DNA of 24,000 nucleotides from Microvirgula aerodenitrificans DSM 15089 (GTDB lineage Bacteria; Pseudomonadota; Gammaproteobacteria; Burkholderiales; Aquaspirillaceae): contig NZ_KK211072.1 in assembly GCF_000620105.1 (NCBI RefSeq), positions 28,275-52,274 of the forward strand, given 5' to 3'. This document shows, one piece after another, positions 594 through 22,996 of this stretch. Below the pieces are notes generated by a model. The model was not told where the DNA came from. It made no database searches and saw only the letters and a list, made by a program, of their open reading frames with translations. A program made the position numbers and the translations under genes. Position 1 is the first letter of the stretch; the number at the start of each line of letters is the position of its first letter.

Positions 594-594
594 G

Positions 595-1239
595 TCAGTC
601 TCCGGGGGCAGGCGGTGTTGCGGCAGGATCGGCCTCGCCCCAGCGCGCATGCAGCTGGTGCGGCACGCGCAACTGGTCGAGGATGCGGGCGACCACGAAG
701 TCGACCAGGTCGTCGACCGTCTGCGGATGGGTGTAAAAGCCCGGCGATGGCGGCAGGATGATCGCGCCGGCGCGGGCCAGGCTCAGCATGTTTTCCAGAT
801 GGATGACCGAGAACGGCGTTTCGCGCGGCACCAGGATCAGCGGGCGGCGCTCTTTCAGGCTGACGTCGGCGGCGCGTTCGATCAGGTTGTCGGACAGCCC
901 GTGGGCGATGGCTGCCAGCGTGCCCATCGAGCACGGGCAGACCACCATCGCATCGGACGGATTCGAGCCGCTGGCGACCGGGGCGAACCATTCGTCGCGA
1001 CCATAGACCGCCAGCTGGCCGTCTGCGGCGTGAAAGCGGGCGGCAAGGTCGCGCTGGACCCCGGCCGGGCGGGACGGCAGGGTCCAGCCCATTTCCTGCC
1101 GGGCGACGATCTGTGCCGCCTGTGAATACAGCAGCCGGACGTGGACGCCAGCCTGCAGCAGGGTGTCGAGCAGGCGCAGCCCGTACGGCAGGCCGGAGGC
1201 ACCGGTCAGGGCCAGAGTAACAGTGGCGGGAGGGGTCAT
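595..1239 (-). CDS. ubiX: Flavin prenyltransferase UbiX
   Basis: 214-aa ORF. The N-terminal LALTGASG flavoprotein fold motif, the PCSMGTLAAIAHG motif and the length are typical of UbiX/Pad1. The ATG overlaps the upstream gene's stop (ATGA). Confidence 0.92.
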   Translation of the reverse strand: MTPPATVTLALTGASGLPYGLRLLDTLLQAGVHVRLLYSQAAQIVARQEMGWTLPSRPAGVQRDLAARFHAADGQLAVYGRDEWFAPVASGSNPSDAMVVCPCSMGTLAAIAHGLSDNLIERAADVSLKERRPLILVPRETPFSVIHLENMLSLARAGAIILPPSPGFYTHPQTVDDLVDFVVARILDQLRVPHQLHARWGEADPAATPPAPGD

Positions 1240-1757
1240 TGGGGGCGTGAAGCGAGCAGTCGGGTGGTCATGATACCGTTCAGCGTGCCGGTGACGAAGG
1301 CGGCGGCGGCAAACAGCGGGACGAAATAGCCGAGGCCGTTGCTCGGAATCAGCCAGAGTCTGGCCAGCAGCAGCTGGCCGCCGATATGGCAGAACGCGGC
1401 AATCAGCGACAGGGTGACCGGGCCGAACAGGCGGCGGGGCAGGCGATGGGCGAGCGCCAGCCCGAGCAGGCTGGCCGCCCCCCCGGCCGCGCTGAGGAAG
1501 AAGCCCGGGGTGAACAGACTGCCGAGCAGCAGCGCGGCAGCGAAAATGCGCAGGACGCTGACAGCGATGGCGGCGCGCAGGCCGAGCCGTTCCAGTGCCA
1601 GCAGGGTGACAATATTGGCAAAACCGGGCTTGATGCCGGGCAGCGGCGTCGGAATGCCGGCGTCGAACAGCGCCAGCACGATGGCCAGCGCGGCCAGCCG
1701 CGCCAGACGACGATCGGCCGGCAGGGCGTGCAGCTCGATGACGCGCTCAGTAGCCAA
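1236..1757 (-). CDS. Gx transporter family membrane protein (PF07456-like, formerly 'heptaprenyl diphosphate synthase component I')
   Basis: Polytopic hydrophobic protein containing ...IPTPLPGIKPGFANIVTLLALERLG.... It is paired with a NusG-II-domain gene, as is usual for this family. The track ORF (1236..1931) is open upstream, but that part overlaps the NusG-II gene. I place the start at the TTG at 1757, which lies 10 nt after an AGGAG. The start codon remains uncertain. Confidence 0.7.
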   Translation of the reverse strand: MATERVIELHALPADRRLARLAALAIVLALFDAGIPTPLPGIKPGFANIVTLLALERLGLRAAIAVSVLRIFAAALLLGSLFTPGFFLSAAGGAASLLGLALAHRLPRRLFGPVTLSLIAAFCHIGGQLLLARLWLIPSNGLGYFVPLFAAAAFVTGTLNGIMTTRLLASRPQ

Positions 1758-2112
1758 GGCTGTCGTACTCCTGTTGCCGGCGCAGGACTTCGATGCTGGT
1801 CCGGTTCGGCAGGCAGATCGCCATTTCGCCGGGGCGGGACAGCCAGCCGTGGCGCACGCAGTACTGGCGCGGGCTGGGATCGGTGGCGATACGGGCACGC
1901 CCGTTGCGGACTTCGACCACGGTGGTGCCAAGCGGGCCGGGCACTGACAGGGTGCGGTTCAGCCGCAACGGCAGGTCTTCGACCACCCGGCCATCGGCGC
2001 GCACGCGCAGGGTCTCGCCGATGCCGTCACGCCAGAAGTGCAGGGCGCTGGCGACGACCAGCGCAGCGCCGAGCAGCAGCGCAAGCGCGTCGCCGGCGCG
2101 GAGTGGAATCAT
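1747..2112 (-). CDS. NusG domain II-containing protein (DUF1312)
   Basis: 121-aa ORF with an N-terminal signal/anchor helix (ALALLLGAALVVASAL) followed by a beta-rich domain. It ends with ...CVRHGWLSRPGEMAICLPNRTSIEV, which resembles the conserved C-x(4)-G-W...C-L-P-N segment of this family. Its ATG overlaps the rapZ stop (ATGA). Confidence 0.7.
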   Translation of the reverse strand: MIPLRAGDALALLLGAALVVASALHFWRDGIGETLRVRADGRVVEDLPLRLNRTLSVPGPLGTTVVEVRNGRARIATDPSPRQYCVRHGWLSRPGEMAICLPNRTSIEVLRRQQEYDSLGY

Positions 2113-2954
2113 GCTTCGTCGAGTTCGCGATGGCGGACCAGTACCGTCTGCTCGCCCTGGCGCAGGCGGGCGGCGAGGCGTTCGCCGAGATAGACCGAGC
2201 GGTGCTGGCCGCCGGTGCAGCCGATGGCGACGGTCAGGTAATTGCGGTTGTCGAGACGGAAGGCCGGCAGCCAGCGTTCGATCAGCCCGGCGATGTCGTC
2301 CTCCATCTGGCCGACTTGCGGCTCGGCGGCAAGAAAGGCAGCTATCGGGGCATCGCGGCCGGTCATCGGCCGCAGCTCCGGGTCGTAGTACGGGTTTGGC
2401 AGACAGCGGGTATCGAACACGAAATCGGCGTCGAGCGGCACGCCATGCTTGAAGCCGAACGACTGGATGATCAGCACCAGCGAGCCGATGTCGAGCGACA
2501 CGAAGGTACGCACATAACGGCGCAGCTGGTTGGCGGACAGGTCGCTGGTGTCGATGCGATGGCCGAGCTCGGCGACATCGCCCAGCATCTGCCGCTCCTG
2601 GGCCACGGATTCGGGAATGGTCAGCGCGCAGCCGGACAGCGGGTGGCGGCGGCGGGTTTCGGAAAAGCGGCGGATCAGGGTATCGGTCTGCGCGTCGAGG
2701 AACAGCACGCGGACGTCGTCACCGCTGGCGCGCAGCGTGTCCAGCGCCGCCGGCAGCGCACCGAGTGCGGCCGCGGAGCGGGTATCGACGCTGATGGCGA
2801 CATGGTCGTAGCCGAACGGGCGCACCTGCTCGACCACGCTGGTCAGCAGGCTGGCCGGCAGGTTGTCGATGCAATAGAAACCGCTGTCCTCGAGCATGCG
2901 CAAGGCGATGCTCTTGCCCGAGCCGGACAGTCCGCTAATCAGGATCAGCTGCAT
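2109..2954 (-). CDS. rapZ: RNase adapter protein RapZ (YhbJ)
   Basis: 281 aa with an N-terminal Walker A ([33 protein letters not shown]) and the C-terminal CTGGQHRS motif. It sits in the conserved position after hprK/ptsN. Confidence 0.93.
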
Positions 2955-3891
2955 TTTCCTGCTCCCTCAACATGCGCGTCTGCCGTTCGATGAAGTCGCG
3001 CGTGCTGTCGATGCCCCTGAGCTGGAGAATGTAATTGCGAACGGCGGTTTCGACCAGCACGCCCAGGTTGCGACCGGCAGCCACCGGAATGGTGACCTTG
3101 CGGATTTTGACGTTCAGGACTTCCTGCGTTTCCGACTGGATGGCCAGCCGGTCGATGTCCTGCATGATCTGGTCGGTGGCCTTGACCAGATGGATGATCA
3201 GTTTGAGGATCTTTTTCGGCCGGATGGCGGTTTCGCCAAACACCGTGCGGATATTGAGGATGCCGAGGCCGCGCACTTCAAGGAAGTCGCGCAGCATGTC
3301 CGGGCAGCGTCCTTCCAGGGTTTCCGGGCCGATGCGGAACAGGTCGACCGCGTCGTCGGCCACCAGGCCGTGGCCGCGGGAAATCAGTTCCAGTGCCAGT
3401 TCGCTCTTGCCCATCGCGCTGTCGCCGGTAATCAGCACGCCGACCTCGAGCACGTCGAGGAACACGCCGTGCAGCACGGTGGACACCGCCAGGACTCGCG
3501 CCAGGTAGATGCGCATCACGTCCATCAGGTACGGCGAGGCCTGGCTCGAGGCGATCAGCGGCACGCGCTGGTGTTCGCAGGCGGCCTTCAGTGCGGCCGG
3601 AACCGGCTGGCCGTTGGCGACGATGATGGCCGACATCGGCAGCCGGAACAGCTGCTCCAGCGCTTCGCGGGCCGCGTCCTGTCCCAGCTGGTTCAGGTAG
3701 TCGCATTCGGCGACGCCGAGCACCTGCAGGCTGTTCGGGTGGATCAGGTTCAGGTGGCCGACCAGGGCCAGGGTTGGCCGCTGGTCGTCGGTGCCGATCA
3801 GGTTGTCGATGCCGGACGAGCCGGCGACCCAGTTCAGATTGAGTTTCTGCCGGTTGTCCTGATAAAGCTTCCTGACCGTGATGCTAGGCAT
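2935..3891 (-). CDS. hprK: HPr kinase/phosphorylase
   Basis: 318 aa with the Walker [20 protein letters not shown] and the HprK signature region [11 protein letters not shown]. It overlaps ptsN by 8 nt and rapZ by 20 nt. Confidence 0.93.
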
Positions 3892-4351
3892 GGCTGTCCT
3901 GCTGGGTGGTCAGAAGCTGGAACAGGGTCTGGGCATCCGGTGCGGCGGCCAGCGCTTCGCGCAGCTGGCGGCGGCTGAACATCTGTGCGAGTTCCGACAG
4001 TACCTGCAGATGCAGGTCGGTTGCCTGCTCGGGCACCAGCAGCACGAACAGCAGGCTGACCGGCTTGCCATCGGGCGAGTCGAACGGAATCGGGGATTTC
4101 AGGCGGATGAAGCAGCCGGCGACGTCCTTGAGCCCCTTGGCGCGACCGTGCGGGATGGCAACCCCGTGACCGAGTCCGGTGGAGCCGAGTTTTTCCCGGG
4201 CGAACAGGCTGTCGAAAACGGTGCTGCGGGCAATGCCGTAGGCGTTCTCGAACAGGATGCCGACATGCTCGAACACGCGTTTCTTGCTGCTGACGTCGAG
4301 ATCGACGAGCAGGTGGTCGGTGCTGGGCAGGATCTTTGCGATCAGACTCAT
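3884..4351 (-). CDS. ptsN: Nitrogen-PTS enzyme IIA (PtsN, EIIA-Ntr)
   Basis: PTS EIIA type-2 domain with the phosphorylatable His context [13 protein letters not shown] place the start at the ATG at 4351. The track's start at 4360 is a TTG three codons upstream and is the alternative. Confidence 0.9.
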
Positions 4352-4518
4352 GGTCGTCAACGAGTACGAGTAATCAAAACGGGGCCATTCTAGCCGGTTA
4401 CGGCGGGAGCGTCTGCCGCATTAGTGGGCACCCCGGCCGGTCTGCACCAGCAAAGGGCAGACCGGCAGCGGAATGCCTGTGCCGGCACCCCTCCGGGCGC
4501 GAGGGCCCGCAATCAAAC

Positions 4519-4548
4519 GGGGGGACTGCCGTTTCCGGCAGTCCCCCC
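4519..4548 (-). terminator. GC-rich hairpin downstream of hpf (candidate intrinsic terminator)
   Basis: Perfect 12-13 bp stem (ggggggactgcc / ggcagtcccccc) around a 4-6 nt loop, about 70 nt after the hpf stop. On the minus strand it is followed by GTTTGATT, which is a weak U-tract. Confidence 0.5.
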
Positions 4549-4616
4549 CTTTCAGTCAGGCCTGAGCCAGCGGCACGACGACCGCGGGCGCTTGCCCTTG
4601 TGAGTCTTCTTCAGGC

Positions 4617-4955
4617 TCAGGCTTCGGAGCCGGCGGACAGCTCCTGTGCCTTGTGCGCCTTGTCCGAGAAGTGATCCGTACTCTTCTCCTTGTGCTTCAG
4701 CACCTGTCTGTCCAGCTTGTCGGCAACCAGGTCAATGGCCGCATACATGTCGGCTGCGACTTCCTCGACGTGGATGTCCTTGCCCTTCAGGTGAACGTCG
4801 ACCGTCACTTTCTGGTCGAGTTTCTCGACCGAGAGGGCGACGTTGACGGCAATGACGTTATCGACGTGGCGGGTGATGCGGTCGATTTTTTCCGACAGGT
4901 AGTCGCGCAGGCTCGGAGTGACTTCGAGATGGACGCCGGTGATGTTCAGGTTCAT
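4617..4955 (-). CDS. hpf: Ribosome hibernation promoting factor (sigma-54 modulation protein family)
   Basis: 112 aa starting MNLNITGVHLEVTPSLRDYLSEKIDRITRH..., typical of HPF/YhbH. A GAAGGAG Shine-Dalgarno lies upstream. The gene sits immediately downstream of rpoN. Confidence 0.93.
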   Translation of the reverse strand: MNLNITGVHLEVTPSLRDYLSEKIDRITRHVDNVIAVNVALSVEKLDQKVTVDVHLKGKDIHVEEVAADMYAAIDLVADKLDRQVLKHKEKSTDHFSDKAHKAQELSAGSEA

Positions 4956-5025
4956 ACCCTAACTCCTTCTGGTGGGCTGGCGTATCCATGTTGCTGGATA
5001 CGCAGGGGGCGCGCCTTGACGCGCG

Positions 5026-6471
5026 TTAAATCGTTTTCCGCTGGTTTACCGGTGGTATCAGCAATGCCTCGCGATACTTGGCGACGGTGCGGCGGGCAAC
5101 CTGGATGCCCTCGTCACCGAGCCGTTCGGCCAGCACGCTGTCCGACAGCGGTTTGTGCGGGTCTTCGTCGGCAATCAGCTTGCGCAACCGCGCCTTGATG
5201 GCGGTAGCCGAGCATTCGCCGCCGGAATCGGTGTCCAGCGCCGTGCCGAAGAAGTACTTGAGTTCGAACACGCCACGCGGACAGATCAGATACTTGCTGC
5301 TGGTCACGCGGGAGATGGTCGACTCGTGCAATCCCAATTCGTCGGCGACGTCGCGCAGCACCATGGGGCGCATTGCGACTTCACCCTGATCAAAGAACGC
5401 CTGCTGTCGCTCGACGATGACCTGCGACACTCTGAGTATAGTGTCGGCCCGCTGTTCGATGTTGCGGATCAGCCACTTGGCTTCCTGCAGCCGGCCGGAC
5501 AATTGTCCGGCCTCGCCGCGGTGCCGGCTGAGCATCTGCGCGTACAGCTGATTTACTTTCAATTTGGGCTGAGTCGCAGGATTCAAGAGGGGCAGCCAGA
5601 TTCCGTTGCGATCGCGACGGACCAGCACGTCGGCCATCACGTAGTGGGTGTCGCCGCTGCCGAAACCGGCGGCCGGACGCGGGTTCAGCGAGGCGATCAG
5701 CGCCTGGGCCTGCCGGATCGATTCGTCGTCGGCGCCGGTGGCGCGGCGCAGCCGGGTGAAGTCGCGGTTGGCGAGCAGCGGCAGGTGGTGGCGGACGATG
5801 TCCTGCGCCAGCGGCCTGGCCGGCGACTCGGGCCGGGCCGCCAGTTGCAGCAGCAGCGATTCGGTCAGATCGCGCGAGGCGACACCGGCCGGCTCGAACT
5901 GCTGGACCAGGGTCAGCGCCACGGTCAGCTCGTCGGGATCGATCTCCAGTTCCGCCGGCAGATGGACGGCAAGCTCTTCCAGCGGGCAGGGCAGGTAGCC
6001 GTCGTCGTCCAGTTCCTCGATGATGACCATCGCCATTGCCCGGTCGCGGACCGACAGCGGCAGCTCGGCCAGTTGCGCCAGCAGATGCTCGCGCAGCGTG
6101 GTGGCCCGGGTCAGGTTCTGGTGCGGGTCCCAGTCGTCGTCTTCGTCGCTGCCGTTGCGGCCGTAGCTGGACCAGTCGTTGACCAGGTTCAGGTCGGTGG
6201 CGCTGTCGTCGTTGCCGCCGGCCCCGTCCTGCTGCTGCGGTGGCTCACGCGGCTCGTCATGGCCGTTGATGGCAATCTCGCCGGCATCGCTGACTTCCGC
6301 GCCGTTTTCGTCACGGCCCTCGTCGCGCTCCAGCAGCGGATTGTCGGCGATGAACTGTTCCACTTCCTGTTGCAAGTCCAGCGTCGAGAGCTGCAGCAGC
6401 CGGATCGACTGTTGCAGTTGGGGCGTAAGGGTCAGTTGCTGACCCAGCTTGAGCTGGAGGCTTTGCTTCAT
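5026..6471 (-). CDS. rpoN: RNA polymerase sigma-54 factor RpoN
   Basis: 481 aa. It has the N-terminal region I (MKQSLQLKLGQQLTLTPQLQQSIRLLQLSTLDLQQEV), an acidic region II, and the C-terminal RpoN box ARRTVAKYRE. Confidence 0.97.
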   Translation of the reverse strand: MKQSLQLKLGQQLTLTPQLQQSIRLLQLSTLDLQQEVEQFIADNPLLERDEGRDENGAEVSDAGEIAINGHDEPREPPQQQDGAGGNDDSATDLNLVNDWSSYGRNGSDEDDDWDPHQNLTRATTLREHLLAQLAELPLSVRDRAMAMVIIEELDDDGYLPCPLEELAVHLPAELEIDPDELTVALTLVQQFEPAGVASRDLTESLLLQLAARPESPARPLAQDIVRHHLPLLANRDFTRLRRATGADDESIRQAQALIASLNPRPAAGFGSGDTHYVMADVLVRRDRNGIWLPLLNPATQPKLKVNQLYAQMLSRHRGEAGQLSGRLQEAKWLIRNIEQRADTILRVSQVIVERQQAFFDQGEVAMRPMVLRDVADELGLHESTISRVTSSKYLICPRGVFELKYFFGTALDTDSGGECSATAIKARLRKLIADEDPHKPLSDSVLAERLGDEGIQVARRTVAKYREALLIPPVNQRKTI

Positions 6472-6480
6472 GGCCGCTGT

Positions 6481-7215
6481 CTAGAGGTGGAAATGCTCGC
6501 CCAGGTAGACGCGGCGGACATTTTCGTCCTCGACCAGCGCCTGGGGCTTGCCGGCGGCAAGTACGCTGCCGGCATTGATAATGTAAGCCCGATCGCAGAT
6601 GCGCAGGGTTTCGCGAACATTGTGATCGGTGATCAGTACGCCGATGCCGCGCTCCTTCAGGTAGGAGATGATCTTCTGGATATCGATGACGGCAATCGGG
6701 TCAACGCCGGCAAACGGTTCGTCCAGCAGGATGAAACGCGGGCGCATGGCCAGCGCGCGGGCGATTTCCACCCGGCGGCGCTCGCCGCCGGACAGCGACA
6801 GCGCCGGGTTGTCGCGCAGGTGGGCGATGTTCAGATCGTCGAGCAGCAGCTCCAGTTCTTCCTGGATCTTCGCCCCTTTCAGTCCGGTCAGCTCGAGCAC
6901 GGCGAGAATGTTTTCCTCAACCGTGAGCTTGCGGAAGATCGAGGCTTCCTGCGGCAGATAGCCGATGCCGAGCCGGGCACGCTGGTGGATGGCCAGATGG
7001 CTGGCATCGATATCGTCGATATGGATGTCGCCGGCATCGGCCGGCACCAGGCCGACGATCATGTAGAAACTGGTTGTCTTGCCGGCACCATTCGGACCGA
7101 GCAGACCGACGACCTCACCGCTGTTGATTTCCAGCGAGACATCCTGGACCACCGTGCGCTTCTTGTAGCGCTTCTGCAGGTGGCGGACGCTGAGGCGACT
7201 GGTGGCTTGCGTCAT
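6481..7215 (-). CDS. lptB: LPS export ABC transporter ATP-binding protein LptB
   Basis: 244 aa with Walker A (GPNGAGKTT), the ABC signature (LSGGERRR) and Walker B (ILLDEP). It lies between lptA and rpoN as in other proteobacteria. Confidence 0.97.
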
Positions 7216-7781
7216 TTATTGGCGCCTTCCTTCTTTTCACGCGGCTGGATCACCACGGTGACACGGCCCTTGCCGCCCTTCATTGCCTGGCCATGGGCAT
7301 CGCTGCGGGTGCCGGTGGCCTGGAATTGCTGGGTCTTGCCGTCGTAGATGATCACATTGCCGGTGACGACGTCGCCACCGCGCTGAACTCTGCCGTTGTC
7401 ATAGATTGTAACCAGTTGCTTGGCGTTGTCGTAGTCAATGCGCTGGCCCTTGCCGTTGATCCACTCGACCTTGCCGTCGCTGTCAGGGTCGAGGCGCTGG
7501 CGGAAGGTGGCCGGGTTGCCGATGGCGGTGCCGTACTGGTTGCCGGCCTTGTCCTGGTTCACCGTCAGTTTGGCGGCGGTCAGCTTCGATGTGCCCTGGG
7601 TCAGGATCACATTGCCTTCGTAGACGGTCACGCCCTTCTGCTGGTCGAGACTGGCCTGGTCGGCTTCGATATTGATCGGTTTGCTGCGGTCGGCCTTTTC
7701 GGCATGGGCGGCGAGGGCGCTGCAGACGATCAGGGCACCTGCGGCGAGGCGGAAGGAATTATTCGGATTTCGGCGGAGCAT
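7212..7781 (-). CDS. lptA: LPS transport periplasmic protein LptA
   Basis: 189 aa with a signal peptide ([12 protein letters not shown]) and an OstA-like repeated beta-jellyroll sequence ([28 protein letters not shown]). Its stop overlaps the lptB start. Confidence 0.9.
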
Positions 7782-8346
7782 AAGTCATCCTGACGCGCGA
7801 TTTGAGTTTGTATTGTTGGGTGGCATCGGCGTAGTGGAAACCCACCGAGTCAATGCGGTTGCCGCCTTCGACGTAGATTGCCGGCGCCAGGGTGTCGGCG
7901 GTGCGCTTGCGCGTATCGACGGTCAAGCGGGTGGTGTCCAGCGTGGCCGGCAGCGGATGCTGCGCCGAAGGCTCTCGCCGGGCGCGGACCTTGCCGTCGA
8001 GGAAGGCGATGCCGGTATCGTTGTTGTACAGGCCGCTGGTGGTAAAGATCGACAGATCCTTCCGTCCCAGGCTGTACTGTTCCAGCGTCGAGTCGGTAAA
8101 GAATACCCGCTTGTCTTCCGGATATTGCCACATGGATTTGCCGAAGGCGTGGCGGTCGATGCGGCCATTGGCGTCGAAGCTGGTGCCGACAAAGTCGGAC
8201 GCCATGTACTCGACCGTACCGCGGTTGACCGGGTCGCGGCCGGCCGGCAGCATCGACAGCAGGTATTCCAGCCACAGCGTCAGCAGGATCAGGATCACGG
8301 CCAGCAGCAGCGGGAACAGGCGCGAGGCATTGCGGAGTGCGAACAT
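7759..8346 (-). CDS. lptC: LPS export system protein LptC
   Basis: 195 aa with a single N-terminal membrane anchor (LFPLLLAVILILLTLWL) followed by a periplasmic domain. It holds the conserved kdsC-lptC-lptA position. Confidence 0.85.
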   Translation of the reverse strand: MFALRNASRLFPLLLAVILILLTLWLEYLLSMLPAGRDPVNRGTVEYMASDFVGTSFDANGRIDRHAFGKSMWQYPEDKRVFFTDSTLEQYSLGRKDLSIFTTSGLYNNDTGIAFLDGKVRARREPSAQHPLPATLDTTRLTVDTRKRTADTLAPAIYVEGGNRIDSVGFHYADATQQYKLKSRVRMTYAPPKSE

Positions 8347-8349
8347 GGC

Positions 8350-8901
8350 TCAGTCTTCCAGGTACGGCGCGAGCGCCGCGTCCAGCGTGCCCTGGGCCTG
8401 CATGATCAGTTCACAGACTTCGCGCACCGCGCCGTGGCCGCCATGGCGACCGGTCACGTAGTGGGCGTGGCTGCGCACGATATCGGGCGCGGCCGGCACC
8501 GCGACGGCGAAGCCGACCTGGCGCATGACCGGCAGGTCGACCACGTCGTCACCGACATAGGCACAGGCGGCCGCGTCGAGCCCGGTTCTGGCCAGCAGAT
8601 CGGCGAATGCGGCGCGCTTGCCTTCCGACCCCATGTACAGGTGATCGATGCCGAGCGCGCGCGCGCGATGCTCGGTGGCGCCGGAGGCGCGGCCGGTGAT
8701 GATGGCAAGGGCGACGCCGCTTTTCTGCAGCATCTTCAGGCCGTGGCCGTCGAGGGTGTTGAATGCCTTGATTTCCTCGCCGGCCGGCGTGAAATACAGC
8801 TGGCCGTCGGTCAGGACGCCGTCGACGTCGAGGATCAGCAGGCGGACGGGAACTGCGAGTGCATGGACAGTGTGCATAGTCAGTATCGTGTTACACCACA
8901 C
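8350..8901 (-). CDS. kdsC: 3-deoxy-D-manno-octulosonate 8-phosphate phosphatase KdsC
   Basis: HAD motif I (LLILDVDGVLTDG) plus GDDVVDLPVM and GGHGAVREVCELI. The track start at 8901 is a GTG that overlaps kdsD by 11 nt. The ATG at 8877 (MHTVHAL...) is an equally plausible start. Confidence 0.9.
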   Translation of the reverse strand: MWCNTILTMHTVHALAVPVRLLILDVDGVLTDGQLYFTPAGEEIKAFNTLDGHGLKMLQKSGVALAIITGRASGATEHRARALGIDHLYMGSEGKRAAFADLLARTGLDAAACAYVGDDVVDLPVMRQVGFAVAVPAAPDIVRSHAHYVTGRHGGHGAVREVCELIMQAQGTLDAALAPYLED

Positions 8902-9874
8902 CGGCGCGGAACAGATCGTGCATGTTCAGCGCGCCAGCCAGTTTGCCGTTCGTGTCGAGCACGAGCAGGCCGTTGATCTTGTTAGCCTCCATGACCTTGA
9001 CCGCTTCGGCCGCGAGCCGGTCGGCAGCAATGGTCTTGGCGGCCGGCTGCATGACCGTGCCGACCGGGGTGGCGAGGAAATCCGCCTGACCGGCATCGAT
9101 CAGCCGGCGCAGGTCGCCGTCGGTAAAGATGCCGCGCAGCGTGCCGTCCGCGTCGGCGATGGCTGTCATGCCCAGCCCCTTGCGGCTGATTTCCAGCAGC
9201 GCATCGCGCAGGCTGGCGTCCGGTGCGACCACGGGCAGCGCATCACCGCCGTGCATCACGTCCGAAACATGGACCAGCAAACGCCGGCCCAGGCTGCCGC
9301 CCGGATGCGACAGCGCAAAATCCTCGGCACGGAAATTCCGCGCATCGAGCAGCGTCAGTGCCAGCGCGTCGCCGAGCGCCAGCGCGGCGGTGGTGCTGGC
9401 GGTCGGTGCCAGACCGAGCGGTCCGGCCTCGTGTTCAATGGCCGCGTCCAGATGGATGTCCGATTCGCGGGCCAGCGTCGACGTGTCGCGGCCGGTCATG
9501 CCGATCAGGGTGACGCCCTTGCGGCGGATGGCCGGCAGCAGGGCGATCAGCTCACCGGATTCGCCCGAATAGGACAGGGCGATCACCACGTCGCCGGCGG
9601 CAATCATGCCGAGGTCGCCGTGGGCGGCTTCGGCCGGGTGGACGAAGAATGCCGGCGTGCCGGTCGATGCCAGCGTGGCGGCAATCTTGCGCGCGATATG
9701 GCCGGACTTGCCCATGCCGGTCACGATGACCCGGCCACGGCAGGCGAGCACCGCGTCGACGGCGGCAAGAAAGCTGCCGTTCAGGCGTGCGGACACGCCC
9801 TCGATGGCTTGAGCTTCGGTGGCGAGAACATCGCGGGCAAGGGCGAGGCGATGGGCGGACAGGGATGCATTCAT
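8891..9874 (-). CDS. kdsD: Arabinose-5-phosphate isomerase KdsD (SIS + tandem CBS domains)
   Basis: SIS motif VTGMGKSGHIARKIAATLASTGTPAFFVHPAEAAHGDLGM and C-terminal CBS pairs. I use the ATG at 9874, which gives 327 aa, close to my recollection of the E. coli KdsD length. The track's upstream GTG at 9898 is the alternative. Confidence 0.93.
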   Translation of the reverse strand: MNASLSAHRLALARDVLATEAQAIEGVSARLNGSFLAAVDAVLACRGRVIVTGMGKSGHIARKIAATLASTGTPAFFVHPAEAAHGDLGMIAAGDVVIALSYSGESGELIALLPAIRRKGVTLIGMTGRDTSTLARESDIHLDAAIEHEAGPLGLAPTASTTAALALGDALALTLLDARNFRAEDFALSHPGGSLGRRLLVHVSDVMHGGDALPVVAPDASLRDALLEISRKGLGMTAIADADGTLRGIFTDGDLRRLIDAGQADFLATPVGTVMQPAAKTIAADRLAAEAVKVMEANKINGLLVLDTNGKLAGALNMHDLFRAGVV

Positions 9875-9986
9875 GTCAGGTCGGGAGGGCGCTGTCACCC
9901 TCCGTCAAAAGATGTCGTAGTGGGGGAGTATACCAAGCGTTAAACTCGCGGCGTTTCCGATACTTCATGCCACTGTCGATTTCCTG

Positions 9987-13676: not shown

Positions 13677-14378
13677 ATGTACCGACTGATCGACCGCCAG
13701 CCCGACTTCATCATTATCGACAAGGCACCGGGCGTTGCCGTGCATCGCGACCAGGAAGCGCAGGGCCTGCTTGATGTCCTGCGCGCGGATCTGGGGTGCG
13801 ACAGCCTGCATCTGGTACATCGTCTCGATGCGATCACCTCCGGCCTGATGGTGCTGGCGACGCATCGCGATGCCGCGCGTACGCTGTCGCAGGCGTTTCA
13901 TGACCACCAGGTCGACAAGTTCTATCTGGCGCTGTCCGATCGCAAGCCGGCGCGCAAGCAGGGCTGGGTGACCGGCGACATGGACCGCGGCCGCCGCGGC
14001 AGCTGGCGCCTGTTGCCGACCCGGGTCAATCCGGCCATTACCCGGTTCTTCTCCGTCTCGGTCGAACCCGGCGTGCGCGCCTTTCTGCTGCGGCCGTGTA
14101 CCGGCCGCACCCATCAGTTGCGCGTGGCACTGAAAAGCCTCGGCAGCCCCCTGCTGGGCGATCCGCTGTATCACGCGGCCGATGCGGCGAATGCGGCGGC
14201 CGATCGCGCCTACCTGCATCACTACGCGTTCGCCTTCGAGCTGGGCGGGCGCCGCTGGCGCTATGTCCAGCCGCCGACGACCGGTACGCATTTCCTGGCG
14301 GCGCCGTTTGCGGCAGCGCTCGGCCGTTTTGATGATCCCTGGGCGCTGGATTGGCCGGAATCATGTCTAACTCGTTGA
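13677..14378 (+). CDS. RluA-family pseudouridine synthase (short form without S4 domain, YqcB/TruC-like)
   Basis: 233 aa with the catalytic motif HRLDAITSGLMVLA and the conserved GRTHQLRVAL. Confidence 0.88.
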   Translation: MYRLIDRQPDFIIIDKAPGVAVHRDQEAQGLLDVLRADLGCDSLHLVHRLDAITSGLMVLATHRDAARTLSQAFHDHQVDKFYLALSDRKPARKQGWVTGDMDRGRRGSWRLLPTRVNPAITRFFSVSVEPGVRAFLLRPCTGRTHQLRVALKSLGSPLLGDPLYHAADAANAAADRAYLHHYAFAFELGGRRWRYVQPPTTGTHFLAAPFAAALGRFDDPWALDWPESCLTR

Positions 14379-14739: not shown

Positions 14740-15147
14740 ATGCAACAGCCTGTCATCACCGTATCCACCCTCGATCTCGACCGATTGGAGGCCCTGCTGG
14801 AGAATATCGACAGCAAGGCTTTCCCCGCAGCCGGGCAACTGGCCCGCGAACTCGATCGTGCCGAAGTGGCCGAGCCCGCCGACATGCCTGCCGGCGTTGT
14901 GACGATGAATTCGCGCGTGCGTTTTGCCGCCGACAATGGCGAAATCCGCGAATACACACTGGTTTACCCGAAAGACATGAACGGCAACCCGGACCGGCTG
15001 TCGGTGCTGGCGCCGGTTGGCGCGGCGCTGCTCGGCCTGTCGGTCGGGCAGACGATCGAATGGCCGATGCCGGACGGCGCGACGCTGCGCCTGACCGTGC
15101 ATGAAGTGATCTGGCAGCCGGAAGCCGCAGGCGAGCTGCACCGCTGA
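14740..15147 (+). CDS. rnk: Regulator of nucleoside diphosphate kinase Rnk (GreA/GreB-family secondary-channel protein)
   Basis: 135 aa from the ATG at 14740, with GGAG 7 nt upstream. It is collinear with my recollection of E. coli Rnk (~136 aa): [36 protein letters not shown], and PEAAG near the end. The track's longer in-frame ORF from 14527 is GC-rich leader sequence. Confidence 0.9.
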
Positions 15148-15170: not shown

Positions 15171-15803
15171 ATGAGCACACTGACCGATCTGAAGTACCTG
15201 AAGACCGTGATCGAGACCGCATTGCTGGTCGCGACCGAGCCGCTGTCGGTCCATGACCTGAAGCGGCTGTTCACCGAATCGCTGCAGTCGGGCCTGATCT
15301 ACGAAATGGTGGAGGAAATCCAGAACGAATGGCGGGGTCGGGGCATCGAACTCGTCAAGCTGGCCAGCGGCTGGCGCTTTCGCGCCCGGGCCGAATTCAA
15401 GCCTTACCTGGAACGACTGAGCCCGGAGAAACCGCCGCGCTATTCGCGCGCGGTGATGGAAACCATCGCCATCGTTGCCTACCGGCAGCCGGTGACGCGC
15501 GGGGACATCGAGTCCATTCGTGGCGTCTCGGTTTCCAGCCATGTGATGCAGACCCTGTCCGAACGGGGTTGGATCGAAGTCATCGGCCACAAGGACGTGC
15601 CGGGACGTCCCGGTCTGTACGCCACGACCCGCAAGTTTCTCGACGATCTCGGCATGAAGTCGCTGAAGGACCTGCCACCGCTCGCCGATATCGGCGCGCT
15701 GGTCATACCCGAAATACCGAATGACGACGCGGGCGCAAAAGACGCCGCGTCGGCGCAAGCATTGAACGAAAGCCCAGAAGATGTCGAAACCGAAGCCCAG
15801 TAA
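15171..15803 (+). CDS. scpB: Segregation and condensation protein B (ScpB)
   Basis: 210 aa with tandem winged-helix motifs: ...[11 protein letters not shown]..., [42 protein letters not shown] and [18 protein letters not shown]-type. Confidence 0.93.
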
Positions 15804-18381
15804 CCAGCGCACTGCCCGCCAGCCGGCCGCGCGAACGCACCGCGACCAGCCGAAGGCGCCGTACTCCGCGCCGCGTGGTGGCAACCAGAAGCCGTTTGGC
15901 CGCCCGGAAGGGGAAGCGGGCCGTGGCGCGCCGCGCCAGGGCGGAGATCGCCCGGCCTACGGCGGCTCGCGTGATGACGACCGTCGTCCGTCCGGCCCGC
16001 GTGGCGAGGGCGGCTTCAGCCGTGGCCCGAAGCCGTTTGGCGACCGTGCGCCGCGCCAGGGCGGGGATCGTCCGGCCTATGGTGGCCCGCGCCAGGGGGG
16101 AGACCGTCCGGCGTTCGGTGGCCCGCGTGACGGCGGTGACCGTCGTCCGTCCGGCCCGCGTGGCGAGGGCGGCTTCAGCCGTGGCCCGAAGCCGTTTGGC
16201 GACCGTGCGCCGCGCCAGGGCGGGGATCGTCCGGCCTATGGTGGCCCGCGCCAGGGGGGAGACCGTCCGGCGTTCGGTGGCCCGCGTGACGGCGGTGACC
16301 GTCGTCCGTCCGGCCCGCGTGGCGAGGGCGGCTTCAGCCGCGGCCCGAAGCCGTTTGGCGACCGCGCACCGCGTCAGGGCAGTGACCGCCCGGCCTATGG
16401 CGGCCCGCGCGGTGATGGTGATTTCAACCGTGGTCCGAAGCCGTATGGCGACCGTCCGCCGCGTCAGGGCGGTGACCGCCCGGCCTATGGTGGCCCGCGT
16501 GACGGCGGCGACCGCCGTCCGTCCGGCCCGCGTGGCGACAGTGATTTCAACCGGGGTCCGAAGCCGTATGGCGACCGTCCGCCGCGTCAGGGCGGTGACC
16601 GCCCGGCCTATGGTGGTCCGCGTGACGGCGGCGACCGTCGCCCGTCCGGCCCGCGCAGCGACAGCGGCTTCAGCCGTGGCCCGAAGCCGTATGGTGATCG
16701 TCCGCCGCGTCAGGGCGGCGACCGTCCGGCGTTCGGTGCTCCGCGTGACGGCGGCGACCGCCGTCCGTCCGGCCCGCGTGGCGACAGTGATTTCAACCGT
16801 GGTCCGAAGCCGTATGGCGATCGTCCGCCGCGTCAGGGCGGCGACCGTCCGGCGTTCGGTGCTCCGCGTGACGGCGGCGACCGCCGTCCGTCCGGCCCGC
16901 GCAGCGACAGCGGTTTCGGCCGTGGTCCGAAGCCGTTCGGTGACCGTGCACCGCGTCAGGGCGGGGATCGCCCGGCGTATGGTGGCCCGCGCGACGGCGG
17001 CGACCGCCGTCCGTCCGGCCCGCGTGGCGACAGTGATTTCAGCCGGGGTCCGAAGCCGTATGGCGATCGTCCGCCGCGTCAGGGCGGTGACCGCCCGGCC
17101 TATGCTGGTCCGCGTGATGGCGGCGACCGCCGTCCGTCCGGCCCGCGTGGCGACAGCGATTTCAACCGCGGTCCGAAGCCGTATGGCGACCGTCCGCCGC
17201 GTCAGGGCGGGGATCGCCCGGCCTATGCTGGCCCGCGTGACGGCGGCGACCGCCGTCCGTCCGGTCCACGTGGCGACAGTGATTTCAACCGCGGTCCGAA
17301 GCCGTATGGCGATCGTCCGCCGCGCCAGGGCGGCGACCGCCCGGCCTATGCTGGTCCGCGTGATGGCGGTGACCGCCGTCCGTCCGGCCCGCGCGACGGT
17401 GGCGACCGTCGCCCGTCCGGCCCGAAGCCGTTCGGTGGCGAAGGCAATGCCTATCGTGGCCCGAAGGCAGGCAATGGCGGACCGGCGGCAAGCCGCCCGG
17501 GCAGCTATCTGCCGGTGCTTCGTGCCAAGAAAATGCCGCAGCGCCATCTGTCGGGCAAGCTTGAGCAGAAAATGCTGAAGCTGCGCGAAACACGTATCGA
17601 CCCGAACAAGGGGCTGCACGAAATGCGCCTGCAGAAGGCGCTGGCACTGATGGGGCTGGGCTCGCGTCGCGACATGGACGAGATGATCACCCAGGGCCGC
17701 GTCAGCGTGAATGGCGAAGTGGCCGAACCGGGCACGCGCGTCGTGCCGGGTGACAAGGTGCGCGTCGATGGTCGCCAACTGGCCATCCGCTGGCCGGACC
17801 GCCTGCCGCGCGTCATTGTCTACCACAAGCAGGAAGGCGAAATCGTCACCCGTGACGACCCGGAAGGCCGGGTCACGGTGTTCGAGCGTCTGCCGCAGAC
17901 GCGCTCCAGCAAGTGGGTCGCCGTTGGCCGCCTCGACGTCAACACTTCCGGGCTGCTGATTTTCACCACCTCGGGTGAGCTGGCGAACCGGATGACGCAC
18001 CCGAGCTTTGAAGTCGATCGTGAATACGCCGTGCGCACACTGGGCGCGCTGACGCCGGATCAGATGAAGGAATCGACCCGGGACATCGAACTCGAGGACG
18101 GACCGGCGCGCTTCCAGTTCATCCGCGAGGAAGACGACAAGGAAGAAAGTGCGAACCACTGGTACCGTGTCGGCCTGCGCGAAGGGCGCAATCGTGAAGT
18201 CCGTCGTCTGTTCGAACACTTCGGCCTGACCGTCAGCCGCCTGATTCGTGTCCGCTTCGGCATCGTCACGCTGCCGTCGCGGCTCAAGCGCGGGCAGTTC
18301 TACGAACTCAATGAACTGGAAGTCGCCAAGCTGGTGCAGTGGGCCGGCCTGACGCTGGCCGGAACCAGCGACGACGCCTGA
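15781..18381 (+). CDS. rluB: 23S rRNA pseudouridine synthase RluB with a ~610-aa repeat-rich N-terminal extension
   Basis: The C-terminal ~250 aa form a canonical S4 domain ([31 protein letters not shown], from 17623) plus an RsuA/RluB catalytic domain ([29 protein letters not shown]). The ORF stays open in the same frame back to the ATG at 15781, which overlaps the scpB end by 23 nt. If the extension is not translated, the alternative starts are 17533 or 17623. Confidence 0.85.
15943..17436 (+). repeat. In-frame tandem repeat array inside rluB (12 units of 120, 159, 159, 90, 7 x 123 and 105 bp)
   Basis: Consensus 41-aa unit: [41 protein letters not shown]. Two 53-aa units carry one extra 12-aa GDRPAxGGPRxG module. 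Every unit length is a multiple of 3. I found no mismatch by eye between 16021-16179 and 16180-16338. Confidence 0.95.
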
Positions 18382-18982: not shown

Positions 18983-19543
18983 ATGAACAAAGCCTTTACC
19001 CAGGAAGATGACAACGAACAGGACGACGACCTGCCGGTCGAGCGTCAGTTGCCGCGTTCGGGCAAGAATTACATGACGCCAGGTGGCTGGCAGCGCATGA
19101 AGGACGAGCTGTACCACCTGGTACATCGGGAACGGCCGGAAGTCACCCAGATCGTCAACTGGGCGGCCGGCAATGGCGACCGTTCGGAGAATGGCGACTA
19201 CCTGTATGGCAAGCGCCGGCTGCGGGAAATCGACCGTCGCATCCGTTTTCTGACCAAACGGCTGGAAGTGGCCGAGGTGGTCGATCCGGAACGGCGCGAG
19301 CCGACCGACCAGATTTTCTTCGGCGCGACCGTCGTCATGCTGCGCGGCAACGGGCAGGAACAGACGGTCAGCATTGTCGGCGTCGACGAGATCGACGTGG
19401 CACGCGGCCATATCAGCTGGGTGTCACCGATTGCCCGGGCCCTGATCCAGGCACGCGAGGGAGACGAAATCCTGTTTCGCGGCCCTGACGGCGATGAGCA
19501 GATCGAGATCCTGGAAGTGCGCTACCAGCGCGTGGACCCCTGA
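18983..19543 (+). CDS. greB: Transcription elongation factor GreB
   Basis: 186 aa from the ATG at 18983. It has an acidic N-terminal tail, then a Gre coiled coil (NYMTPGGWQRMKDELYHL...ENGDYLYGKRRLREIDRRIRFL) and a C-terminal domain (ISWVSPIARALIQAREGDEI). The track's upstream start at 18923 adds only GC-rich leader. Confidence 0.9.
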   Translation: MNKAFTQEDDNEQDDDLPVERQLPRSGKNYMTPGGWQRMKDELYHLVHRERPEVTQIVNWAAGNGDRSENGDYLYGKRRLREIDRRIRFLTKRLEVAEVVDPERREPTDQIFFGATVVMLRGNGQEQTVSIVGVDEIDVARGHISWVSPIARALIQAREGDEILFRGPDGDEQIEILEVRYQRVDP

Positions 19544-20438: not shown

Positions 20439-21008
20439 TCAGGCCGCCGCCATCCCCATGGCCGCCGCAATGCCGAGTCCCGCGAACAGACAGGCCGAGA
20501 CGATGTGCACGGCGCGGGTCGGCAGGACATTGGCTGCCTTGTGGCCGATCCAGACCGCCGGCGCATTGGCCAGCATCATGCCGACCGTGGTGCCGGCGAC
20601 GACGGCGAACAGCGCGTCGTACTTGGCGGCCAGCATCACCGTCGCGATCTGGGTCTTGTCACCCATTTCGGCCATGAAGAAGGCGATCACGGTCGCGGTA
20701 AACACGCCGGCGCCATCACGGATGCGGATTTCGTCCTCGTCGATCTTGTCGGGAATCAGCATCCAGACGGCCATGCCGACAAACGACGCGACCAGTACCC
20801 AGCGCAGGACGTCCGGGGAAACCAGCGTGACCAGCCACGCGCCCAGACTGCCGGCGATGGCGTGATTGACAATGGTGGCGACAAAGATGCCGGCGACGAT
20901 AGGCAGCGGTTTGCGGAAACGGGCGGCGAGCAGCAAGGCCAGCAACTGGGTCTTGTCACCGATTTCGGCCAGCGCGACGACGCCAGTGGAGATGAAGAAT
21001 GCGGACAT
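20439..21008 (-). CDS. UPF0016 / GDT1-TMEM165 family cation (probable Mn2+/Ca2+) transporter
   Basis: 189 aa with six TM segments. The family's E-x-G-D-K-T motif occurs twice (LAEIGDKTQLLAL and MAEMGDKTQIATV). Confidence 0.9.
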   Translation of the reverse strand: MSAFFISTGVVALAEIGDKTQLLALLLAARFRKPLPIVAGIFVATIVNHAIAGSLGAWLVTLVSPDVLRWVLVASFVGMAVWMLIPDKIDEDEIRIRDGAGVFTATVIAFFMAEMGDKTQIATVMLAAKYDALFAVVAGTTVGMMLANAPAVWIGHKAANVLPTRAVHIVSACLFAGLGIAAAMGMAAA

Positions 21009-21077
21009 GTGGAGTTCCCGAGGCTCGATACGACACCATGATCGCGCGTCGCCCGAGCCTCGAAAGAGAGCGGACGG

Positions 21078-21200
21078 CGATCATGGGTCTTGCCGCGAAA
21101 AGTCTGTGCTTTCCGTCGCGTGCCACGGCCTGTCGGCCAAGTCTGTTGACACGCGCCCCCGCTGTGCTGCCGCGGGCCGGCTACTCCCCCAGGACTGGGT
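21078..21200 (-). promoter_or_regulatory. yybP-ykoY (Mn2+-sensing) riboswitch aptamer in the 5' leader of the UPF0016 transporter gene
   Basis: The minus strand reads ...CCUGGGGGAGUAGCC...GUGUCAACAGAC...CGCGGCAAGACCCAUGA. The class-defining GGGGAGUAG (21189-21181), GUCAAC-A-AC (21150-21141) and CAAGACC (21092-21086) motifs occur in the correct order and spacing. UGGG/CCCA closes P1. UPF0016 genes are, as I recall, a documented downstream gene class for this riboswitch. No covariance-model score could be computed. Confidence 0.75.
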
Positions 21201-21230
21201 GCCCGGCAGAACCGGGCGAGAAGAGCGCGC

Positions 21231-22663: not shown

Positions 22664-22817
22664 CCTTGCCTGAGAAGACCGGACGAGCGAAGCGAGGTTT
22701 CCCCGCGGCGGCGGGGACGGAAGGGGCAGGGCTCAATCAGGCAGACTGCCGTGCCCATGACGGATTCTGTCAGTCGGGCGTGCACCGACGCCACTGCAAC
22801 CGTCGGTGCCCACCTTT
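22664..22817 (+). repeat. Structured intergenic element, copy 1 of a tandem pair (period 179 bp)
   Basis: 22680-22817 is identical base for base to 22859-22996 (138 bp). The 16 bp to the left match 12/16. Internal hairpins: CCCCGC-ggcg-GCGGGG (22701-22716), GGCA-gac-UGCC, and GCACCGACG-10 nt-CGTCGGTGC (22782-22809) followed by CCACCTTT. Confidence 0.9.
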
Positions 22818-22842: not shown

Positions 22843-22996
22843 CCTTGCCCGCAAAGAACGGACGAGCGAAGCGAGGTTTCCCCGCGGCGGCGGGGACGGA
22901 AGGGGCAGGGCTCAATCAGGCAGACTGCCGTGCCCATGACGGATTCTGTCAGTCGGGCGTGCACCGACGCCACTGCAACCGTCGGTGCCCACCTTT
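22843..22996 (+). repeat. Structured intergenic element, copy 2
   Basis: See copy 1. Its terminal hairpin (22961-22988) ends 21 nt from the hslO stop codon on the opposite strand. Confidence 0.9.

Follow-up and report, generated by a model that had tools for sequence, protein, structure and literature searches.

The rluB locus of Microvirgula aerodenitrificans DSM 15089 (placed in the Betaproteobacteria, Neisseriales, Aquaspirillaceae) raises the question of why the gene for a ribosomal RNA (rRNA) pseudouridine synthase opens with a long array of tandem repeats, and whether this array is made into protein at all. We analyzed the locus within a stretch of 24 000 nt (contig NZ_KK211072.1, positions 28 275 to 52 274), which we call the window and whose first letter is position 1 of all coordinates given here. 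Our findings indicate that the array very probably belongs to the enzyme, where it forms the centre of a 614-residue N-terminal tail that is predicted to be disordered, and that this tail may act as a multivalent RNA-binding arm.

An RluB core preceded by a 614-residue extension

The rluB coding sequence including the tail spans 15781–18381 on the plus strand and specifies 866 amino acids (aa); it was assigned from the list of open reading frames (ORFs), the Pfam domains S4 and PseudoU_synth_2 and a best NCBIfam match to RluB. The S4 RNA-binding domain is located at 17623–17760 (plus strand, aa 615–660; PF01479, E = 1.7e-11), with predicted local distance difference test (pLDDT) values of 76–94, and is followed at 17812–18219 (plus strand) by the pseudouridine synthase catalytic domain (aa 678–813; PF00849, E = 2.3e-19), which contains the motifs GRLD (D719) and REY (Y749). 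G716-R717-L718-D719 and R747-E748-Y749 are invariant in an alignment of 44 sequences and align with E. coli RluB, in which Asp110 of GRLD and Tyr140 are the catalytic residues (PMC3919597). A search of the PDB matched residues 614–846 to E. coli RluB 4LAB (E = 3.6e-75, 257 bits), far ahead of RluF (5e-23, 84 bits). The RluB equivalog NF007976 was likewise the best NCBIfam match with 279.4 bits (RluF 96, RsuA 85), just under its trusted cutoff of 290. Only model positions 4–244 of 291 were aligned, and the score stays below 290 because positions 245–291, the last 47 that represent the E. coli C-tail, have no counterpart here. This shortfall probably explains why relatives are named just 'pseudouridine synthase' in the databases. 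As judged from these comparisons, the protein is clearly closest to RluB among the RluB/RluF/RsuA/RluE-type enzymes.

E. coli RluB (PDB 4LAB/4LGT), the 23S rRNA pseudouridine-2605 synthase, shares this S4 and catalytic core with its conserved catalytic Asp and Tyr; it is 291 aa long and begins with the S4 domain (PMC3919597), as the original prediction, a reading of the sequence alone, had stated. A basic tail that is disordered and poorly conserved is present in E. coli RluB too (PMC3919597). However, the E. coli tail is C-terminal, non-repetitive and 40 residues long, whereas the Microvirgula protein has no C-tail and carries 614 residues with a repeat array at its N-terminus.

The extension of about 610 aa at 15781–17622 that the original prediction had described thus measures 614 residues (∼65 kDa), with the S4 domain starting at residue 615 according to Pfam. 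Its ATG at 15781 is the earliest possible start codon in frame and, as had also been noted, falls in the stop region of the upstream gene scpB (15171–15803, plus strand; Pfam SMC_ScpB, E = 1.4e-50, and an exact match to Microvirgula ScpB). The last 23 nt of scpB overlap the rluB start, so that translational coupling of the two genes is probable. Neither a promoter-like nor a terminator-like site was found between scpB and rluB, the search for an internal promoter or terminator near the array was equally negative, and Rfam gave no match in the rluB region.

Anatomy of the tail

The tail can be divided into four parts, all on the plus strand. A conserved basic leader (aa 1–53, 15781–15939) is identical in eight Microvirgula assemblies, and its first ∼20 residues align with the pattern MSKGQRNxARQPVxR of other Neisseriales RluBs (24 orthologues). 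The tandem-repeat array (aa 54–548, 15940–17424) follows with ∼495 aa of modules of 40/41, 30 and 12 aa, whose consensus opens with GGDRPA[YF] and closes with [YF]GDRPPRQ. The third part is a non-repetitive spacer of 32 aa that is rich in G, P and A and has low pLDDT (aa 549–580, 17425–17520). The last is a basic pre-S4 linker of 34 aa (aa 581–614, 17521–17622), for which a short helix is predicted at residues 592–603 and which is conserved in the 24 Neisseriales orthologues with the pattern [RK]AK[KR][LM]xxRxxxQ...LRExRxD. An internal ATG at 17533 (Met585) sits in this linker; in most of the 24 orthologues the Met is replaced by Leu.

Tandem Repeats Finder detected a period of 123 nt with 10.6 copies (16087–17393, score 1523) and a period of 159 nt with 3.0 copies (15931–16410, score 813), besides further periods of 36, 90 and 33 nt; all repeats together cover 15931–17424, which corresponds to 1494 nt or 498 aa. 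The coordinates, the unit consensus and the hierarchical periods 36/123/159 given in the original prediction are essentially correct. Its count of 12 tandem units came close but was not exact: when the array is cut between PRQ and G, the 53-aa leader is followed by modules of 40, 12, 41, 12, 41 and 30 aa, seven modules of 41 aa and a decayed terminal unit, i.e. 10 full units of 40/41 aa plus truncated ones. The length in nt of every module is divisible by 3, as had been claimed. The copies of the 159-nt super-repeat (15931–16410) are near-identical, while the 123-nt units farther downstream have diverged synonymously.

We next consider the composition of residues 54–560 (507 aa). This region contains 97 R and 12 K versus 64 D and 4 E; its net charge is +41 and its pI 11.2. 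It further comprises 129 G, 92 P and 38 Tyr/Phe in a strict 20/7/14 spacing; I, L, V, M, C and W do not occur. With a fraction of charged residues of 0.35, a net charge per residue (NCPR) of about +0.08 to +0.09 and a kappa of 0.08, the charges are well mixed. We counted 21 RG, 1 GR, 35 GDR, 35 PR and 33 RP, but no RGG. Of the earlier description as a balanced polyampholyte with RGG-like motifs and aromatics at fixed spacing, the aromatic spacing holds, but the charge is not balanced and RGG triplets are absent. The hydropathy of the array (0.295) lies far below the Uversky boundary between order and disorder (0.442), and an AlphaFold2 model built from the 44-sequence alignment gave pLDDT <50 and no secondary structure for residues 1–590, a weak helix at 592–603 and values of 76–96 for the core. 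The tail is thus predicted to be intrinsically disordered, in line with the original prediction.

The codon usage of the array (15940–17424) is peculiar as well. CCG makes up 99% of the Pro codons and CGT 65% of the Arg codons compared to 22% in neighbouring genes; CGA, AGA and AGG are not used, and TAT accounts for 94% of the Tyr codons while the neighbours prefer TAC. Translational selection, avoidance of G/C runs and hitch-hiking by duplication are candidate causes of this bias.

The array is very probably translated

An open frame cannot serve as coding evidence at this locus and we rejected it as such, since two other frames are open as well: a +1-frame ORF of 567 aa rich in Ala, Arg and Val (15875–17578, plus strand) and an antisense ORF of 838 aa that runs across the whole array (15703–18219, minus strand). 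We also rejected GC content at third codon positions (GC3) and frame plots, because amino-acid composition dominates GC3 in this region: the true frame has 0.70, the +1 frame has 0.84 and thereby mimics genuine genes, and the neighbouring genes have ∼0.80, so that gene callers are misled. Instead, we compared the ratio of non-synonymous to synonymous change (dN/dS, Nei–Gojobori) between nine 123-nt units for each stop-free frame. In the annotated frame the value is 0.13, with a proportion of synonymous differences (pS) of 0.33 and of non-synonymous differences (pN) of 0.054. All other stop-free frames gave 2.8–5.4, including 4.7 for the +1 frame and 5.4 for the antisense frame, both of which we regard as spurious. 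The 36 variable columns among the nine units are distributed 4/6/26 over codon positions 1, 2 and 3, which bears out the synonymous third-position differences noticed earlier; the dN/dS near 1 that would have spoken against the original prediction was not observed.

Variation between strains shows the same pattern. Compared to a conspecific contig we observed 46 mismatches, 37 of them synonymous and 9 non-synonymous, with 38 of the 46 on third positions, and three indels of 195, 369 and 69 nt. We discounted these in-frame indels as independent coding evidence, since indels of whole modules are automatically multiples of 3. Starting at the same ATG, the ORF runs through 7–13 modules into the core in each of the eight Microvirgula assemblies that are free of gaps, yielding products of 655, 690, 732, 773, 802, 813, 826 and 866 aa with the 41-, 30- and 12-aa modules variously arranged. 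The start MSK...ARQP[VA]xR is conserved in the 24 Neisseriales orthologues, and this conservation of the leader fixes the start codon at 15781. Furthermore, the ORF is intact in all sampled Neisseriales and, wherever scpB was located, takes up the whole stretch from scpB to the core.

These observations have to be weighed against the possibility that the repeat is not translated: RluB would then start at 17533 (Met585) or 17623 (Met615) and the array would be a satellite or 5′ leader, or else the +1 or antisense ORF would be the real one. Gene callers seem to favour such a reading, since a 282-aa RluB starting at the equivalent of Met585 is annotated in four public assemblies and the +1 frame is called in three (L204, L206 and L210); the lower GC3 of the true frame and an AAGGGG 9 nt upstream of 17623 point in the same direction. 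However, the annotations dissolve on inspection. The array is broken by 100-N scaffold gaps in three assemblies: in L202 and L205 the short 282-aa gene is the sole rluB call, and in L204, with the same type of gap, an alternative-frame ORF and a 293-aa core gene are called. L206 and L210 retain an intact true frame (773 and 690 aa), yet the annotation there is a +1-frame ORF plus the truncated 282-aa RluB. Loci in which the repeat region is interrupted or out of frame would have spoken against the original prediction; the interruptions found in public Microvirgula contigs are such N gaps, a contig end or gene-caller splits, and we rejected them as evidence on the frame. Moreover, other genera have Leu, Val or Glu in place of Met585 and Met615 but share the MSK start, no promoter-like site is present inside or just upstream of the array, and the contrast in dN/dS between frames is hard to reconcile with a non-coding satellite. 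We therefore regard non-translation as highly improbable.

Taken together, the locus displays what is expected of a coding tandem repeat: periods of 36, 90, 123 and 159 nt, a synonymous bias in one frame only, and a frame kept across alleles and species. From the sequence comparisons, the tail is almost certainly translated as part of RluB, as the original prediction had proposed, and purifying selection on the array peptide is evident from the same substitution pattern.

The fate of the array in public assemblies also has a practical side. The exact 866-aa protein is absent from a collection of 15 billion proteins in which its neighbours ScpB and NlpE are present. Databases under-report the feature because assemblers break or collapse the array, gene callers pick the wrong frame or the 282-aa form, and the NCBIfam cutoff is missed. 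The lesson is that an array of this kind is prone to assembly breakage and to wrong-frame or truncated annotation.

RluB tails in other bacteria

To compare RluB proteins we used one genome per species and searched with the core only, so that the sample is unbiased as to tails. All sampled Neisseriales RluBs possess an N-terminal extension of 51–347 aa and essentially no C-tail, whereas in the RluBs of Gallionellaceae, Sideroxydans and Methylophilaceae the N-extension is nearly missing and the C-tail is short and basic. In the closest named relative, Laribacter hongkongensis, the core is 83% identical and the N-tail comprises 258–448 aa depending on the isolate (protein length 513–703 aa). The centre of the Neisseriales tail is hypervariable. 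Where other genera have tandem arrays, all periods are divisible by 3 (63, 84, 96, 105, 114, 156, 51 and 33 nt): we found 8.8 copies of 63 nt in Crenobacter oryzisoli, 5.2 copies of 114 nt in Crenobacter caeni, 2.3 copies of 84 nt in Crenobacter luteus, 5.9 copies of 96 nt in Craterilacuibacter, 2.5 copies of 105 nt in Gulbenkiania, and 2.9 and 2.0 copies of 51 and 33 nt in Paludibacterium. The tails of Vogesella and Aquitalea are of low complexity, non-repetitive and free of tandem arrays. For all 48 Neisseriales loci the variable region has an NCPR above zero (range 0.056–0.20). Within this sample of sequences, the genera retain the charge density and the lack of aliphatic residues despite sequence turnover.

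Outside the Neisseriales we compared those RluBs that share words with the query. Tails rich in R, G, P and D, overall 100–500 aa long, were found at the C-terminus in Pseudomonas (208–233 aa) and in Xanthomonadales (Arenimonas, Lysobacteraceae; ∼250–340 aa) and at both ends in Burkholderiales. They have the elements GDRP, KP[FY]GDR and PRxxG in common with Microvirgula, and the stretch GDRPARAPRDAGDRPARGPR of the Pseudomonas tail is strikingly similar to stretches in Microvirgula and in the C-terminal tail of Arenimonas; but they are C-terminal or at both ends, shorter and less regular than the 123-nt array. In P. aeruginosa the 'disordered C-terminus' of RluB has been reported as a mutation hot spot (PMC8662654). 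The literature we searched mentions a disordered RluB tail only in passing (E. coli, PMC3919597; P. aeruginosa, PMC8662654), and we found in it no description of N-terminal RluB repeat tails or of the KP[FY]GDR motif. The original prediction had called the tail unusual. This holds for its size but not for its presence, given that every sampled Neisseriales RluB is N-tailed and those of Pseudomonas, Xanthomonadales and Burkholderiales have tails too. By sequence comparison the Microvirgula tail is exceptional in being the longest seen here, in its regularity and in combining an N-terminal position with this motif set, and the comparison indicates that in the course of RluB evolution the tail has moved from one terminus to the other and has repeatedly arisen anew in the form of in-frame arrays.

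The variability of the centre raises the question whether its length matters at all. A short basic tail might be functional or harmless and the extra ∼500 residues a near-neutral product of recombination or slippage, with selection acting only against stops, frameshifts and aggregation-prone residues. Conspecific assemblies differ indeed in module number and product length (7–13 modules, 655–866 aa), as do the Laribacter proteins (513–703 aa); tails of 51–347 aa suffice elsewhere in Neisseriales, with Vogesella and Aquitalea doing without tandem arrays; and the first three units are almost identical in DNA, which speaks for a recent duplication. However, a dN/dS of 0.13 at a pS of 0.33 means that the units are old enough for synonymous sites to have become saturated, with the peptide kept. 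The conserved charge density and aliphatic exclusion, as well as the independent origin of long arrays in Crenobacter, Craterilacuibacter, Laribacter and Microvirgula, are further points that tolerated expansion does not readily accommodate. We consider this account somewhat unlikely. It is compatible with a functional tail and disputes only whether its length matters.

The motif on other RNA and ribosome proteins

Next, we investigated whether the repeat motif occurs on other proteins. A word-indexed homology search with the repeat alone returned one irrelevant match and missed the conspecific protein, and is unsuitable for low-complexity queries. We used phmmer with four units, filter-free, against 1.84 billion representatives; this search tells which domains carry the repeat but is not a census. 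Because of bias correction it gave only 10 significant matches. Eight of the nine from outside Laribacter are proteins of RNA-modification type with KP[FY]GDR or GDRAPRPYGDR tails at the N- or C-terminus: a SpoU rRNA methylase, an RsmB-type protein with NusB and Methyltr_RsmB-F domains, a protein matched in the NusB domain only, a tetrapyrrole-methylase-family protein (TP_methylase) that we read as RsmI-like, two S4+PseudoU synthases, a protein matched in the S4 domain only and a class-I methyltransferase.

In addition, metagenome contigs were scanned with a back-translated double KP[FY]GDR motif only, a small sample seeded with this one motif. The recovered ORFs were clustered with repeats masked, since unmasked repeats linked unrelated proteins, and the scan yielded 117 ORFs in 23 clusters. 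Initiation factor 2 (IF-2) from gut metagenome contigs was the most frequent carrier (55 ORFs), accompanied by DEAD-box helicases (five ORFs plus fragments, some with KPFGDR repeats), RluB-like synthases with C-tails (five ORFs), SpoU, RsmB and a 2-thiouracil desulfurase. Three families without a Pfam domain (representatives L153, L176 and L104) contributed 19, 9 and 6 ORFs. In this motif-seeded sample all clusters with a recognisable domain, the desulfurase excepted, act on rRNA or the ribosome. The motif thus recurs on RNA and ribosome proteins.

Such recurrence could mean that the KP[FY]GDR and GDRPA[YF] elements are docking motifs that bind a specific protein partner, for which a ribosomal protein, an assembly GTPase, an RNA helicase or RNase E would be candidates, and recruit RluB to a complex rather than to RNA directly. 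A short motif shared by otherwise unrelated tails across phyla and the strict 20/7/14 aromatic spacing would fit this idea, and there is a precedent in the disordered tail of RhlE2, which binds RNase E (PMC11260450). Nevertheless, many Neisseriales tails (Vogesella, Aquitalea, Silvimonas) lack the motif and keep composition and charge alone; the carriers have RNA in common but not any known protein partner, and none is identifiable from sequence. Taking both sides into account, we find a docking function improbable.

A multivalent RNA-binding appendage as the favoured function

On balance we favour the interpretation, with some reserve, that the array is a multivalent disordered appendage for RNA binding and co-condensation, the Microvirgula form of a lineage-wide RluB tail; RNA binding, condensation and a benefit of the extra length are what we infer from the composition and the comparisons described below. 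In this tail a conserved basic leader and a conserved basic pre-S4 linker enclose a hypervariable repeat centre, which would grow and shrink by in-frame unequal recombination or slippage between modules of 36, 90 and 123 nt. The appendage is N-terminal in Neisseriales and C-terminal in Pseudomonas and Xanthomonadales as well as, in a much shorter form, in E. coli; Burkholderiales carry it at both ends. It may function as a sequence-nonspecific RNA-binding arm: the ∼9 Arg/Lys and 3 Tyr/Phe per 41-aa unit could touch phosphates and unpaired bases through many weak contacts, and the Asp, Pro and Gly between them would ensure that the chain remains expanded, soluble and quick to exchange. The arm would raise the avidity and local concentration of RluB on nascent, protein-poor 23S rRNA or pre-50S particles, with a possible contribution of RNA-dependent co-condensation to the gain in avidity, while specificity for the U2605 stem-loop would come from the S4 and catalytic domains.

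Among the closest known systems are the tails of P. aeruginosa DEAD-box helicases, C-terminal in RhlE1 and RhlE2 and N-terminal in Type II RhlB. Like the Microvirgula tail they are predicted to be disordered, independent of position and attached to an enzyme of ribosome and RNA metabolism; both features by which tails of the RhlE/RhlB type are recognised, predicted disorder and a net positive charge on an RNA-acting core, were found here, which agrees with the resemblance to helicase tails seen in the original prediction. By experiment, the RhlE/RhlB tails increase the affinity for RNA, have a stimulating effect on the core and cause phase separation that depends on RNA (PMC11260450; bioRxiv 10.64898/2026.03.23.713837). 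Isolated helicase tails bind RNA and promote phase separation (PMC11260450), and in P. aeruginosa Type II RhlB it is a disordered N-terminal region of 111 aa that drives the formation of RNA-dependent droplets (bioRxiv 10.64898/2026.03.23.713837). The helicase tails differ in the catalytic core, in their length of ∼100–250 aa and in having no long regular arrays. RluB itself co-purifies with stalled pre-50S particles alongside DeaD, SrmB and RhlE (PMC11194073, PMC11912913).

A second group for comparison are the eukaryotic glycine/arginine-rich (GAR) or RGG domains of fibrillarin and GAR1 and the arginine-rich segments of RNase E, which bind RNA and promote condensates (PMC9957100, PMC12951762). 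GAR/RGG domains resemble the Microvirgula tail in being rich in Arg and Gly, punctuated by aromatics, disordered and attached to rRNA-modifying machinery. However, with no RGG in 507 aa, high Asp and Pro and no sequence homology, the resemblance is one of composition only. In its mode of action the tail may resemble a GAR domain; judged by its sequence, however, it is not a member, as it lacks clustered RGG.

Several observations weigh against an RNA-binding arm whose length matters. The 40-residue C-tail of E. coli RluB is dispensable for binding and modification of the stem-loop substrate (PMC3919597), and E. coli RluB as a whole is dispensable and did not rescue assembly in the delta-10 strain (PMC11194073). 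The number of modules varies from 7 to 13 between strains and the tail length from 51 to 614 aa between genera; this points to a weak constraint on length, some of which may be neutral, while collapse of short-read assemblies may cause some of the variation between strains. Acidic residues of ∼13% and the lack of RGG triplets make the array less like classical GAR/RGG RNA-binding domains. Finally, the case for translation is an evolutionary one, and the motif census is of small size, started from a single motif and includes three families without a recognisable domain.

Neighbouring genes and other features of the window

The order of genes around rluB is pseudouridine synthase (13677–14378), rnk, scpB (15171–15803), rluB (15781–18381), nlpE and greB. 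The first of these, on the plus strand 1.4 kb upstream of rluB, encodes a second pseudouridine synthase of 233 aa that consists of PseudoU_synth_2 only, without S4 domain and without tail. Two genes of the GreA/GreB fold bracket rluB, namely rnk (14740–15147; nucleoside diphosphate kinase regulator) upstream of scpB and greB (18983–19543) downstream of nlpE, and this bracketing is kept in all Microvirgula contigs examined.

Farther downstream, a manganese (yybP-ykoY) riboswitch was detected at 21064–21201 on the minus strand (48.8 bits, gathering score 45). It lies directly upstream of a GDT1-family gene (20439–21008, minus strand) that probably encodes a Mn/Ca transporter. Two copies of a 154-nt sequence (22664–22817 and 22843–22996; 97% identical, 179 nt apart) sit between a 2-hydroxyacid dehydrogenase gene, read as serA-like, and the Hsp33 gene; on either strand they fold no better than shuffled controls (z about −0.5). 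The minus strand of positions 1–9950 contains genes of RapZ, HPr-kinase and PTS-EIIA type according to Pfam. The ORFs beyond them are, judged by position, putative rpoN and lptB. These are followed by LptA/LptC and a hydrolase plus SIS/CBS pair (kdsC/kdsD-like), again by Pfam. Long spurious ORFs on the opposite strand, e.g. 5155–7347 (730 aa), are typical of this high-GC genome.

Implications for ribosome biogenesis

To our knowledge, helicases and RNase E are the only bacterial RNA enzymes for which control of RNA affinity, activity and condensates by disordered tails has been shown, and this only recently. Such tails are thus a known kind of feature, of which a tandem-repeat polyampholyte of 65 kDa on an rRNA pseudouridine synthase, length-polymorphic within a species, is a new form as far as the searched literature goes. 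It is less exceptional than the original prediction had it, but hints at a wider pattern that we did not find described. An rRNA-modifying enzyme whose tail has more than twice the mass of its catalytic core extends the picture of disordered tails, and it is extended further by the switching of termini, the repeated re-evolution and a common motif grammar on IF-2, helicases and rRNA methyltransferases in distant phyla.

A broader reading, which we put forward as doubtful, is that the KP[FY]GDR/GDRP repeats are a bacterial counterpart of the GAR domain, a portable convergent module that would concentrate factors of ribosome biogenesis and translation start on nascent rRNA in a nucleolus-like condensate. 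If this were true, its carriers would comprise RluB, methyltransferases of the SpoU type (RlmB-like), RsmB type and TP_methylase type (RsmI-like), DEAD-box helicases and IF-2; array length would tune the partitioning of each factor, and the Microvirgula RluB strains with their 7–13 modules would represent a natural allelic series. Being tractable and naturally variable in length, the locus lends itself to the question whether multivalent disordered tails are a means by which bacteria organise the making of ribosomes.

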